In this document: positions 29,693 to 56,152 of the stretch, piece after piece
Layout: every line of letters starts with the position of its first letter
Position numbering within the stretch: the first letter of the stretch is position 1
Assembly (NCBI GenBank): GCA_977017645.1
Contig: OZ360252.1
Span: forward strand, 14,632,001 to 14,696,000
Reading direction: 5' to 3'
Length of the DNA stretch: 64,000 nucleotides
Origin: Torpedo marmorata
Taxonomy: Eukaryota
The notes under the pieces: generated by a model
What the model was told of the DNA's origin: nothing
The model's database searches: none
What the model saw: only the letters and a program-made list of their open reading frames with translations
Position numbers and translations under genes: made by a program

Positions 29693-29824
29693 CAATGGTG
29701 TTGGTATGACCGTTGACAACCGTCCGCATGAGCGGATCATCAGCACCACTACCCACGCCGAACTGACAGTCTTGGGAATCAATGGTTTTGCTCTCAGCGC
29801 GGTCATAGTCGGCAGGTTCCATAT
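29693..29824 (-). CDS. SRCR receptor cytoplasmic exon 3 ([13 protein letters not shown]...GHTNTI)
   Basis: Acceptor tacttcctcctag, donor gtgagt, 132 bp in frame. Confidence 0.75.
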
Positions 29825-54279: not shown

Positions 54280-56152
54280 CCACCGTGGTTCAGAGAAACG
54301 CTGTTTTATCTTTTCAGATGATAATAAACGTGAACATGACTTGATCTTTAACATAATGGCTCCCTGACATATTTAAATCAACTCTGCAATGTCCTCATTG
54401 ATCATATGGGTCACTTCTGATCACACTCAAGACGATTGAAATCCCCAACGAAAAAGAATCTCATTTCAACCATTCATTTCCAACGCTCTCTCCATTCCTT
54501 CCACCGTCCCATACCGACGTTCGCTCCATGGCCGCTAAACCTGACTGCAGTATGGAGCCTGTACTAATTATATTGCACCAAATCTGCCGGGTGCTAACAA
54601 TAAAGTCCTTATTCAAGCAGAAAGAACCGCAAGCGGATTGGATCAAAGGCACCAGCCGATGCCCCTCAGTCACATGACCCTGACATGCAGATACGACCTT
54701 GTTACTTTATCATCACTGCATAAATCCTGTAAATCTCCCAGTAAAGGAGATCCAAGAAGATTTTTTTTTTCACTGTATTGACACGCGAGACTGCAGATGC
54801 TGGAATCTGAAGCAAACCACAAACTGTTGGACGATCCCGAACTGTCAAGCAGCATCTGGTGGACGGGGGGGGGGGGTTTCAAATTTCCGAGTCGGACCGT
54901 ACATCAGATTAGAAGCTGCTCGACGCCCTGAAATCTTCCAGCAGATGGTTTGTGATTTGCTCCGTACGAACACGGTGCAGATTATTTAATGCCACCGGTT
55001 TTGGACGACAGATTAAAACGGGTGTGAGTTCTGTAACACAAATTGTGATCCCAATATGACAGAAATAATACCGCCAGAAACTTGATGTAATTTCATATCA
55101 GTCGCGGGCAGTCGGACGGTTTTACACCCGGGCGTCCCGGAACGAATTAAGCGGTGGGACCGAAGTAAGAAAAGGTGGATCATTACCTGAGCAGATAACG
55201 CCGGCATCGTAGTCGTGGTAAGGTTCATAAAAACCCCATGATTGCGATGGACAGTCCCGCAGAGCGGTCTCATTCCCGGTGCAGTTTACACTCCACGTCA
55301 CGGCGTCTCCGCTCCCCGGTCCAAAGTGAGAATCGCCCGGGGCTTGCAGCGCGGCGCCGCAGCCCGTCTCCCGACACACCACAGCCGCATCGTCCAGGTC
55401 CCAGTGCTCATCTTCCACAGTTCCCCAGAATCCCTCGTGGTAAACCTCCACTCTCCCTGCGCACGGACTGCCCCCATTCACCAGCCTCAACACGACGCTC
55501 TCTGAAACAAAACAGAAACATCAGCACCGGGATCGCCAGCGGCTCGTTCCGCGTCTCGGCGCACCGCGCTCCCAGCTCACCGCCGTTCACCCATTCAACG
55601 TCCACACATCTTCAACGGAAGGGCCAGTCTGTGGTTACCCCGAATAAACTGCCTAAAGTGGCGAATACATGCAGTCATGTGGTAAATGTCCCAAGTACCA
55701 GGAGTCTCCCGGTGGTTCCAGGGAACAGGGCGGCTCCCAGGACGAGAGGGGCGTGCCCGTTTACCCTCTCCAGAGAGCGGCTGATGGGAGAGTCGTATCG
55801 GAGGCCGGTTGTAGCCAGTTCCCATCTCCATACAGTGGACCCAACACGTGGTGGCGGTATGAACCTATTCTGGGAACTGAACATCAAAGGAGAAAGCTTC
55901 GGAGTGGGTCTTCAGCACGACAAAGGTGGGGTAAACTGTGGGAGCTCATTTACACCCCGGAACAATGTCAACGTGATCAGTTCACGACCCCGCTCCGTTC
56001 AGAAACCTGTTTGATTGTCGCCCGCGTGAATTTCGCGGTCGTCTCTCAGCTGCAAATCTTTACTAACAACCAGTCTCAACAGCCCCACACTAAACACAGT
56101 AAAAATTAAACGCCATTACCTGATCGGTCAGCCAGACAATTCCTGAGGCGGT
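29693..56152 (-). CDS. SRCR group-B type I membrane receptor (CD163/M130-, WC1-, SCART-like): 7 SRCR + TM + Tyr-motif tail; span of defined coding exons
   Basis: 13 AG/GT-bounded phase-1 exons splice into one open frame; first and last exons unresolved. Confidence 0.9.
30270..30380 (-). CDS. SRCR receptor cytoplasmic exon 2 ([18 protein letters not shown]...SRVH)
   Basis: Acceptor ttcattgacttctag, weak donor gtttga, 111 bp open frame. Confidence 0.65.
30565..30762 (-). mobile_element. V-SINE (tRNA-derived head)
   Basis: Revcomp tagcggttagcgc (A box)...ggttcgaatcc (B box)...ggagtttgcacgttctccccgtgtctg (V-domain). Confidence 0.8.
31148..31255 (-). CDS. SRCR receptor cytoplasmic exon 1 ([23 protein letters not shown]...)
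   Basis: Acceptor cctcacgtccacag, donor CAG|gtgtgt, 108 bp. Confidence 0.8.
31383..31493 (-). CDS. SRCR receptor transmembrane exon
   Basis: [37 protein letters not shown]: hydrophobic helix plus basic stop-transfer; donor gtgagt. Confidence 0.88.
31630..31795. mobile_element. Short fold-back Penelope pLTR element
   Basis: tgctggagaaactcagcaggtca ... tgacctgttgagcttctccagca, enclosing a partial hammerhead core. Confidence 0.65.
32989..33024 (-). CDS. SRCR receptor stalk micro-exon ([12 protein letters not shown])
   Basis: 36 bp, atccacag| ... CAG|gtattt, phase 1-1, in frame. Confidence 0.55.
33142..33453 (-). CDS. SRCR domain 7 exon
   Basis: [59 protein letters not shown]; 312 bp. Confidence 0.93.
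33697..34014 (-). CDS. SRCR domain 6 exon
   Basis: [52 protein letters not shown]; 318 bp. Confidence 0.95.
35225..36150 (+). mobile_element. L1-clade LINE 3' fragment
   Basis: ORF 35268-35729 ([32 protein letters not shown]) is an L1 ORF2 C-terminus; G-rich 3' UTR and poly-A at ~36141-36150. Confidence 0.8.
36222..38807 (+). mobile_element. Young Penelope-like retroelement (RT + GIY-YIG) with inverted 5' pLTR and 14-bp TSD
   Basis: ORF 37360-38520: [15 protein letters not shown], linker [26 protein letters not shown]; 36255-36699 is a near-perfect inverted copy of 38366-38808; TSD cttttattcagaag at 36208-36221 and 38808-38821. Confidence 0.97.
38696..38740 (+). ncRNA. Minimal type I hammerhead ribozyme motif in Penelope pLTR
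   Basis: (t)TGATGA-A-GGGC-TCAA-GCCC-GAAA-CGTC, with short stem I pairing (catact / ggttatg). Confidence 0.7.
39253..39567 (-). CDS. SRCR domain 5 exon
   Basis: [58 protein letters not shown]; 315 bp. Confidence 0.95.
40146..41147 (+). mobile_element. L1/Tx1-clade 3' fragment inside CR1 ORF1 (itself interrupted at ~40357-40540 by a - strand CR1-type tail)
   Basis: [23 protein letters not shown] zinc knuckle, LEKIR, aataaa plus A tail; flanking aggaag repeat. Confidence 0.7.
42122..42968 (-). mobile_element. CR1 fragment of another subfamily inserted antisense in the CR1
   Basis: ORFs [13 protein letters not shown] and [21 protein letters not shown]. Confidence 0.85.
44642..44752 (-). mobile_element. 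111-bp Penelope pLTR mini-insertion with 13-bp TSD
   Basis: TSD taggacatacaca at 44629-44641 and 44753-44765; insert matches 36257-36350. Confidence 0.85.
45780..46360 (-). mobile_element. Penelope-like GIY-YIG/pLTR remnant
   Basis: [21 protein letters not shown]. Confidence 0.7.
47617..47931 (-). CDS. SRCR domain 4 exon (6-Cys variant)
   Basis: [56 protein letters not shown]; 315 bp. Confidence 0.94.
48702..49016 (-). CDS. SRCR domain 3 exon
   Basis: [49 protein letters not shown]; 315 bp. Confidence 0.94.
49683..49988 (-). CDS. SRCR domain 2 exon
   Basis: [53 protein letters not shown]; 306 bp. Confidence 0.94.
51450..51750 (-). mobile_element. Penelope pLTR remnant
   Basis: gctggaggaactcagcacgtcac...aacgtttcgggcctgagccc. 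Confidence 0.7.
51770..51838. repeat. Compound (GT)n/(GA)n microsatellite
   Basis: Direct inspection. Confidence 0.95.
53860..54345 (+). mobile_element. Rex1/Babar-like LINE 3' end containing a (TG)n microsatellite (54232-54277)
   Basis: [12 protein letters not shown], ccactaccatcagggagg (LPSGR-like), tail aataaacgtgaacatgacttga. Confidence 0.65.
55187..55501 (-). CDS. SRCR domain 1 exon (6-Cys variant, CpG-rich)
   Basis: [55 protein letters not shown]; acceptor ttctgttttgtttcag; 315 bp. Confidence 0.95.
56120..56152 (-). CDS. 33-bp micro-exon, probable end of signal peptide ([11 protein letters not shown])
   Basis: tttctcattccag| ... CAG|gtaatg, phase 1-1, in frame with SRCR1. Confidence 0.6.

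Follow-up and report, generated by a model that had tools for sequence, protein, structure and literature searches.

To which kind of receptor belongs the long minus-strand gene in a 64,000-nucleotide stretch of the Torpedo marmorata genome (contig OZ360252.1, here C75, positions 14,632,001 to 14,696,000; henceforth the window), and what may this protein do? An earlier sequence-only reading had proposed a WC1/CD163/SCART-like protein with seven SRCR domains in a probable cartilaginous fish. We find that the gene codes for a type I receptor of 992 amino acids (aa) on the WC1/CD163c-alpha branch, and that it does not stand alone but belongs to a set of 55 tandem copies, in which strong diversifying selection is confined to the first domain. 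We consider it fairly probable that this family is a germline pattern-recognition co-receptor repertoire on lymphocytes, probably gamma-delta-type T cells.

The gene was initially detected by a six-frame scan as seven SRCR-like frames on the minus strand. The corresponding exons score 84–113 bits each against Pfam SRCR (cut-off 26), and exon borders show AG/GT ends and phase 1-1 throughout. Joined with the exons for linker, stalk, transmembrane (TM) segment and tail, they give a continuous 992-aa open frame whose only stop is the terminal one (Table 1), which bears out the earlier claim that seven SRCR exons, a stalk, a TM segment and a tyrosine-bearing tail lie in frame. The hinge, probable last and signal-peptide exons had been missed in the sequence-only reading. 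The TM segment occupies approximately residues 808–831. The cytoplasmic tail measures 124 aa up to position 29693, or 161 aa with the probable last exon, and contains five tyrosines. SRCR1 and SRCR4 have six cysteines each and lack C2 and C7.

The signal-peptide exon, located by a hydrophobicity scan, starts 467 bases past the right end of the window and is intact in 30 of 30 copies examined. Another candidate first exon near 63700 was rejected, as it has no shared start or phase-1 donor. A hinge exon probably separates SRCR6 from SRCR7: this segment occurs in the SRCR6–SRCR7 intron of all 53 copies examined, and shark and skate proteins contain a homologous insert. The frame of the last exon runs nine residues longer in 20 of 34 copies. 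Joints in the region from SRCR7 to tail exon 3 were tested with read contigs from run X1, which stems from a relative. These contigs splice 29824 to 30270 and 30380 to 31148 over canonical introns, and connect SRCR7 by way of a short stalk to the TM exon, with a 39-base insert at the stalk joint; they give no cover at the probable last exon (29030..29142). One low-depth X1 contig skips tail exon 1 with its YEEI motif (window 31383 to 30380), which may represent a non-signaling isoform.

The placement of the receptor was examined with domain trees of 125 and 61 domains, one quick and one careful, in which the letters n, d, e and d' were transferred from bird and turtle proteins, CD163 in the PDB and the scheme of PMC2906472. 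Five of the seven domains pair with those of the skate Amblyraja, and the best protein matches of SRCR4 come from skate (79–82%) and sharks (71–76%). The closest relatives of this domain, at 67–82%, are skate and shark proteins, which supports the cartilaginous-fish origin assumed before; a batoid is the likely source. SRCR4, SRCR6 and SRCR7 each group with their counterparts from birds, turtles and ray-finned fish, where the order is the same (n 95/91, e 99/97, d' 92/82), SRCR2 and SRCR3 fall in the b/c group, both nearer to b, and SRCR5 is d by position. The suggestion that this architecture fits no known receptor exactly did not hold up when a colinear match to a known gene was sought by per-domain tree: domains 4–7 do map colinearly onto the n-d-e-d' cassette of CD163c-alpha/SCART and of WC1-like proteins from birds and turtles, several of which likewise have seven domains. 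The label WC1/CD163/SCART-like itself was apt, judged by the domain trees and the YEEI tail.

Group B SRCR proteins have domains with six to eight cysteines and one exon each (PMC2906472, PMC2681482), as is the case here. PMC2906472 describes domain n as diagnostic of CD163c-alpha and domain a as diagnostic of WC1, with chicken hybrids having both, and the tail motif Y-(Q/E)-(D/C/E)-(I/L) as common to CD163c-alpha and WC1; no fish are among the taxa named in the parts consulted. The Torpedo receptor has the membrane-proximal e and d' domains and the tail motif of WC1 and CD163c-alpha, a domain n without C2 and C7 in front of d-e-d' as in CD163c-alpha and SCART, and, as in WC1, a multigene array with diversity concentrated in domain 1. 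The b-c-d-e-d repeat of WC1 without domain n was not found; n is present, and the repeat unit comprises domains 1–4. The seven domains compare with eight in CD163c-alpha/SCART, which begin with m and l, a comparison made without an m or l reference sequence. The family motif also supports the earlier proposal that the tail may signal. YEEI and YDD recur in the tails of proteins from birds, turtle, teleost and bichir, and the turtle tail also has a serine-rich YY segment. Since a word-based search with the shark TM-tail region returned seven elasmobranch proteins only, homology of the tail to that of birds rests on this tail comparison.

Identity with DMBT1 or CD163A is ruled out by the domain trees and the YEEI tail. 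DMBT1 domains form a separate clade and are 35–44% identical to SRCR1, and near-identical SRCR repeats, CUB and ZP domains were not found in the receptor. The lack of CUB and ZP had been noted before, and is confirmed by a TM segment and tail that come directly after SRCR7 and by a shark homologue (P0122) that shows SRCR only in Pfam. Of the CD163A traits, neither the h-i-j-k domains (k was not placed by the tree) nor nine domains, a YREM-type tail or a single copy were seen. Judged by its sequence, the receptor is a member of the WC1/CD163c-alpha (SCART) branch and not a new kind of receptor, but it is a distinct variant, set apart by a very large young array, a tip remodeled from a cation site to a variable surface, and a TM glutamate. 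This glutamate is present in 53 of 53 copies; shark and skate homologues with a recognizable TM segment have E or D there, and it is absent from the six bird, turtle, teleost and bichir proteins compared and from ostrich. Acidic TM residues pair with a basic partner in CD3 or DAP12, and one may speculate that this glutamate likewise pairs with a basic-residue partner.

The array occupies 4.9 Mb of C75 (14.2–19.1 Mb), all on one strand except one SRCR1. Searching the 6.2-Gb genome of the species itself, which gives lower bounds, we found 75 SRCR1 exons on C75 (73–87% identical to the window copy; 74 open), 63 SRCR4 (92–97%), 55 SRCR5, 53 SRCR7 plus one fragment, and 55 tail-2 exons. The 63 SRCR2 exons fall in two classes, 35 at 92–98% including that of the window and 28 at 66–72%. 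Ordering by position, with SRCR3 and SRCR6 placed from fetched loci, yields 55 units. Of these, 37 have seven domains, eight have eleven (block 1–4 doubled) and four have four (1-5-6-7); a single unit has nineteen, another has six SRCR1 copies, and the remaining four are irregular or deleted. Four stretches fetched to look for a signal exon between repeated blocks had none there, and the blocks are probably spliced into one transcript. Introns are 95–99% identical between copies, and a few SRCR1 pairs score identically.

Further observations concern irregular copies. The second SRCR2 class (approximately 70% identical to the first) lies mostly inside repeated blocks, and SRCR6 is split into old lineages (dS 0.13) under purifying selection. 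Upstream of the gene, at least 17 units hold a second set of TM and tail exons, inverted and decayed (e.g., C75:14715100-14717000, plus strand), which could be a source of antisense RNA or a conversion donor. Two units (15.49 and 16.25 Mb) lack SRCR6, SRCR7, TM exon and tail exon 1; splicing of SRCR5 to tail exon 2 would be in frame there and could give a secreted form. One unit at 17.19–17.22 Mb contains six consecutive linker+SRCR1 modules, the last frameshifted, and at 18.48 Mb one linker+SRCR1 stands by itself in inverted orientation. At 2.93 Mb of C75, 11 Mb from the array, there is a more distant copy, broken by a stop and frameshifts. A second cluster, older and made of about seven units of 210 kb each, lies on C42 (63.2–64.6 Mb), with the same b-b-n-d-e-d' order and approximately 50% identity; the stretches fetched did not show its tail. 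Additional SRCR clusters are located on C2, C59 and C666.

Selection acts on domain 1 in a way that sets it apart from the rest of the protein. Pairwise comparison of 74 intact SRCR1 exons, encoding 68 different proteins, gave nonsynonymous (dN) and synonymous (dS) divergences of 0.125 and 0.077 (ratio 1.6, codon bootstrap P 0.003). For SRCR2–7 the ratios are 0.56, 0.37, 0.42, 0.37, 0.58 and 0.24, based on 31, 54, 62, 18, 53 and 50 exons after exclusion of lesioned or fetch-cut ones. The SRCR1 exon has diverged by 0.105, and its flanking introns by 0.04–0.06. Site models were computed with our own codon model on a fixed IQ-TREE tree, where the M0 likelihood reproduces that of IQ-TREE. Comparing M2a with M1a, the likelihood-ratio test (LRT) statistic for SRCR1 is 533, a value that is likely inflated (see below); the model assigns omega 8.0 to 25.5% of sites, and 25 sites exceed 0.95. 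The corresponding LRT values for SRCR2–7 are 1.0, 3.2, 14.9, 4.0, 15.3 and 5.7; SRCR4 and SRCR6 nominally pass, with two sites each.

The selected sites are centered on the surface with which other SRCR proteins bind their ligands. An AF2 model of SRCR1 (pLDDT 91) superimposes on SALSA SRCR8 with a TM-score of 0.95. In SALSA the exposed cation sites 2 and 3 (D1019, D1020, E1086, D1058, D1059, N1081) mediate ligand binding, and cation site 1 is buried (PMC7043408). Mapped by way of a pangolin DMBT1 domain, the site-2/3 residues correspond to SRCR1 positions 30, 31, 97, 69, 70 and 92. Five of these six are among the 25 selected sites (hypergeometric P 0.003, with all SRCR1 positions rather than surface ones only as background), as are none of the four buried site-1 positions; the lost-cysteine positions 29 and 93 are also selected. 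The complete acidic triad is retained in 1 of 70 SRCR1, 37 of 37 SRCR5 and 49 of 49 SRCR7 domains. The same pattern recurs in other elasmobranchs (horn shark, smooth-hound, sevengill, sawshark and skates), compared in sets of at most 15 members per cluster, with clusters cut at 90% identity and isoforms included. In all five sets SRCR1 is the least conserved domain (0.82–0.88 vs 0.86–0.98), and the columns that vary in it show enrichment at the 25 sites named above (P 2e-3 to 1e-6). In ostrich SRCR1 ranks likewise, with P 0.07.

How might such a repertoire work? Bovine WC1 binds Leptospira, augments T-cell receptor (TCR) signals and shows variegated expression (PMC5949365), and in cod an m130-like gene is active in T cells that have putative tcrg/tcrd (PMC9276791). 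In the fish, the tip domain of each paralogue, having lost the C2–C7 bond and the fixed acidic calcium cluster, would show an individual combination of aromatic, polar and charged residues and thereby recognize its own set of microbial surface ligands. The conserved b-b-n-d-e-d' stalk would keep the tip away from the membrane, and domains 5 and 7 could provide calcium-bridged sites for generic anionic ligands or for folding of the arm. Clustering with the antigen receptor may then expose the YEEI tyrosine to a Src-family kinase and strengthen activation, as in bovine WC1. Individual cells would switch on only some of the genes, and the repertoire would be renewed through unequal crossing-over and gene conversion, leaving 4-, 7-, 11- and 19-domain layouts and pseudogenes. 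A bolder version, which we put forward as possible yet rather doubtful, is that T cells of cartilaginous fish use a large germline repertoire that is not immunoglobulin-based, and that the WC1-type system is as old as jawed vertebrates. In this version, a calcium-bridging tip site would have become an antibody-like variable surface with 68 tips, expressed in subsets per cell and linked by the elasmobranch-specific TM glutamate to a partner with a basic residue, for example the TCR.

Several observations weigh against the co-receptor interpretation or its parts. SRCR5 forms no single clade with d domains, CD163 domain 8 is not the best match by score of SRCR6 (e by tree), and mammalian WC1 and SCART1, which protein searches did not return, are absent from the trees. 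In the careful tree SRCR1 falls with bird first domains at 93/90, alongside snake and bichir domains, whereas it stood apart in the quick tree; a single clade was not rejected (p-AU 0.38), in a comparison without bovine a1. Distances computed for each half of SRCR1 show a correlation of only 0.18, so that gene conversion is likely and the LRT inflated; the pairwise and intron comparisons need no tree and are therefore unaffected. The tail and TM exons have dN/dS of 0.7–2.8, none significant, at low divergence. With ratios near or above 1, constraint on the tail rests on its motifs, which are kept in 48 of 52 (YEEI), 42 of 42 (IEYY) and 39 of 40 (YD) copies. About 20 of the 55 units carry a stop, frameshift, broken splice site or deletion in some examined exon, a tally that covers the examined exons rather than every exon of every unit. 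That run X1 represents RNA is a guess. Finally, in cattle several WC1 domains, and not a1 alone, bind bacteria (PMC5949365).

The same receptors could instead serve on myeloid or epithelial cells as scavenger or pattern receptors, used like CD163A or DMBT1 to capture and internalize microbes or host debris, with the tyrosines for endocytosis. YxxI equally fits an endocytic Yxx-phi motif, and the homologues are named DMBT1-like or M130-like in databases. We still regard this use as unlikely, because the domain set and tail follow WC1/CD163c-alpha and the tails are unlike those of CD163A (PMC2906472), because CUB and ZP are missing (Pfam finds both in true DMBT1 and neither in P0122), and because a fixed host ligand would not produce omega 8 at the tip. 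Escape would also put selection on one exposed face, if the receptors bind a host ligand and a pathogen exploits domain 1 for entry or immune subversion, such that the tips diversify to avoid or absorb it. CD163 is a virus receptor in pigs, and the units without a TM region could yield soluble forms. However, escape favors replacement of alleles over 68 different tips kept side by side, the conserved acidic cluster has been lost from the face instead of being guarded, and all tails are of one type, with no activating/inhibitory pairs seen in the array; we judge this scenario to be improbable, more so than the scavenger use.

Least credible, and largely refuted, is a mostly neutral or artefactual amplification, in which unequal crossing-over or the assembly copied an SRCR-plus-GPCR (G protein-coupled receptor) segment and domain 1 was relaxed and shuffled. 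This would account for introns that are 95–99% identical, for the GPCR and pseudo-exons copied along, and for a few identical-scoring SRCR1 pairs, many lesioned units and mosaicism. Relaxation alone cannot, however, raise dN above dS or the divergence of an exon above that of its introns; 74 of 75 SRCR1 exons are open with cysteines and core retained, and the same sites vary in five other elasmobranch groups.

A close known counterpart is bovine WC1, which is also a multigene tandem family with one exon per SRCR domain and most variation in domain 1, has 11-domain forms through internal block duplication, a hinge exon before the last domain, and a tail on four exons after the TM exon with a YEE(I/L) motif. 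Unlike the 13 genes in cattle, there are 55 units here, with one tail type, and domain n, which bovine and pig WC1 lack, is present. Moreover, the duplicated block includes the variable domain, domain 1 has no C2/C7, and the TM glutamate is added; domain 1 may or may not descend from WC1 domain a. CD163c-alpha and SCART1/SCART2 (m-l-b-c-n-d-e-d') have in common with the ray receptor the n-d-e-d' cassette, an n without C2/C7, preceding b-type domains and the tyrosine motif. They differ in gene number (one or two in non-artiodactyl eutherians), in having eight domains with m-l first and, in cattle, in a tail on two exons; a hypervariable tip is not described for them.

The WC1-like/CD163c-alpha hybrids of birds and turtles (a-b-c-n-d-e-d') come with seven domains in the four bird proteins examined, the same order in domains 4–7, and a homologous tail (YEEI, (L/I)xYY, YDD), and the ostrich first domain varies at the same cation positions. 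In contrast to the ray protein, bird domain 1 has eight cysteines, the TM glutamate is missing, and domains 2–3 are b-c where both are b-like here. The chicken WC1-like cluster on chr16 lies beside olfactory GPCRs (PMC4988538, PMC12032555), so that GPCR neighbors, which may or may not be of one GPCR family, are common to both loci. CD163A, a haemoglobin–haptoglobin scavenger, has b and d/d' type domains and provides the best PDB matches by sequence and fold, but is a single gene with nine domains, h-i-j-k first, and an unrelated short tail. DMBT1/SALSA, the source of the automatic names of the homologues, shares the SRCR fold (TM-score 0.95) and the cation sites found in domains 5 and 7, whereas the ray receptor has no CUB/ZP or near-identical domain repeats and has a membrane anchor and a signaling-type tail.

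Database homologues exist under automatic names only (DMBT1-like, M130-like, antigen WC1.1-like), and several are fused models of neighboring genes. A description of the family in cartilaginous fish was not found in the literature (full text, else titles and abstract beginnings; subscription papers and supplements lay outside the search), and term look-up in PMC9207270, PMC6238376, PMC10620051, PMC10751288 and PMC11979771 returned no relevant passages. The term uncharacterised in the sequence-only reading stands in that no functional description was found. Previous work followed WC1-type receptors back to birds and monotremes (PMC2906472); with this cassette and tail also seen in sharks, rays and ray-finned fish, the family moves to the base of jawed vertebrates. 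Unlike the 13-gene cattle family, the array offers enough paralogues to map selection to single residues, and since these fall on the known cation/ligand face, they predict the site of specificity in WC1-like tips. The proteins are candidate surface markers for T-cell subsets of cartilaginous fish, and many database entries called "DMBT1-like" turn out to be wrongly named gene models, often fused ones, of this WC1/CD163c-alpha-branch family.

Table 1. Features of the receptor gene and its neighbor (window positions unless a contig is given)
Feature	Position	Strand	Remarks
Signal-peptide exon	C75:14696422-14696467		outside window, right end; upstream partner of linker exon
Exon 2, short N-terminal linker	56120..56152	-	matches linker of shark homologues
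SRCR1	55187..55501	-	hypervariable N-terminal domain, a-like, without C2 and C7
SRCR2	49683..49988	-	b/c group
SRCR3	48702..49016	-	b-type; best match CD163 domain 5
SRCR4	47617..47931	-	n-type, without C2 and C7
SRCR5	39253..39567	-	d by position; acidic cation triad
SRCR6	33697..34014	-	e-type
Hinge (interdomain) exon, probable	33521..33613	-	between SRCR6 and SRCR7; alternative donor would end at 33545
SRCR7	33142..33453	-	d'-type; acidic triad; covered by X1 contig
Stalk exon	32989..33024	-	
Transmembrane exon	31383..31493	-	intramembrane glutamate and basic stop-transfer stretch
Tail exon 1	31148..31255	-	contains YQAIYEEI
Tail exon 2	30270..30380	-	contains IEYY
Tail exon 3	29693..29824	-	contains YDR (YDD in homologues)
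Probable last coding exon with stop codon	29030..29142	-	weak likeness to shark tails
Rhodopsin-family GPCR gene	22161..23074	+	tail-to-tail neighbor, co-duplicated; one-base frameshift near 22658

The GPCR gene accompanies the array: a copy lies at most 30 kb below the tail in 47 of 55 units, and 50 further copies occur on C75, most with a 305-codon frame. A first look at the wider GPCR family gave 7449 candidates genome-wide, approximately 60% identical on many contigs. A synteny search with EMG1 found no match and is uninformative. Linkage to MHC was not seen, as MHC class I matches lie on C80 and C39 and not on C75. Four flanking 10-kb stretches contain no SRCR-family exons beyond the inverted tail piece; other genes were not searched for there. 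The window also holds Penelope-like elements with GIY-YIG-like ends at 36769-38517 and 16143-17801 (plus strand), one of them nearly intact and in the SRCR5–6 intron, a reverse transcriptase fragment at 26221-26754, an AT-rich LINE-like piece at 56300-58300, and GT/TG microsatellites at 51777 and 54232.

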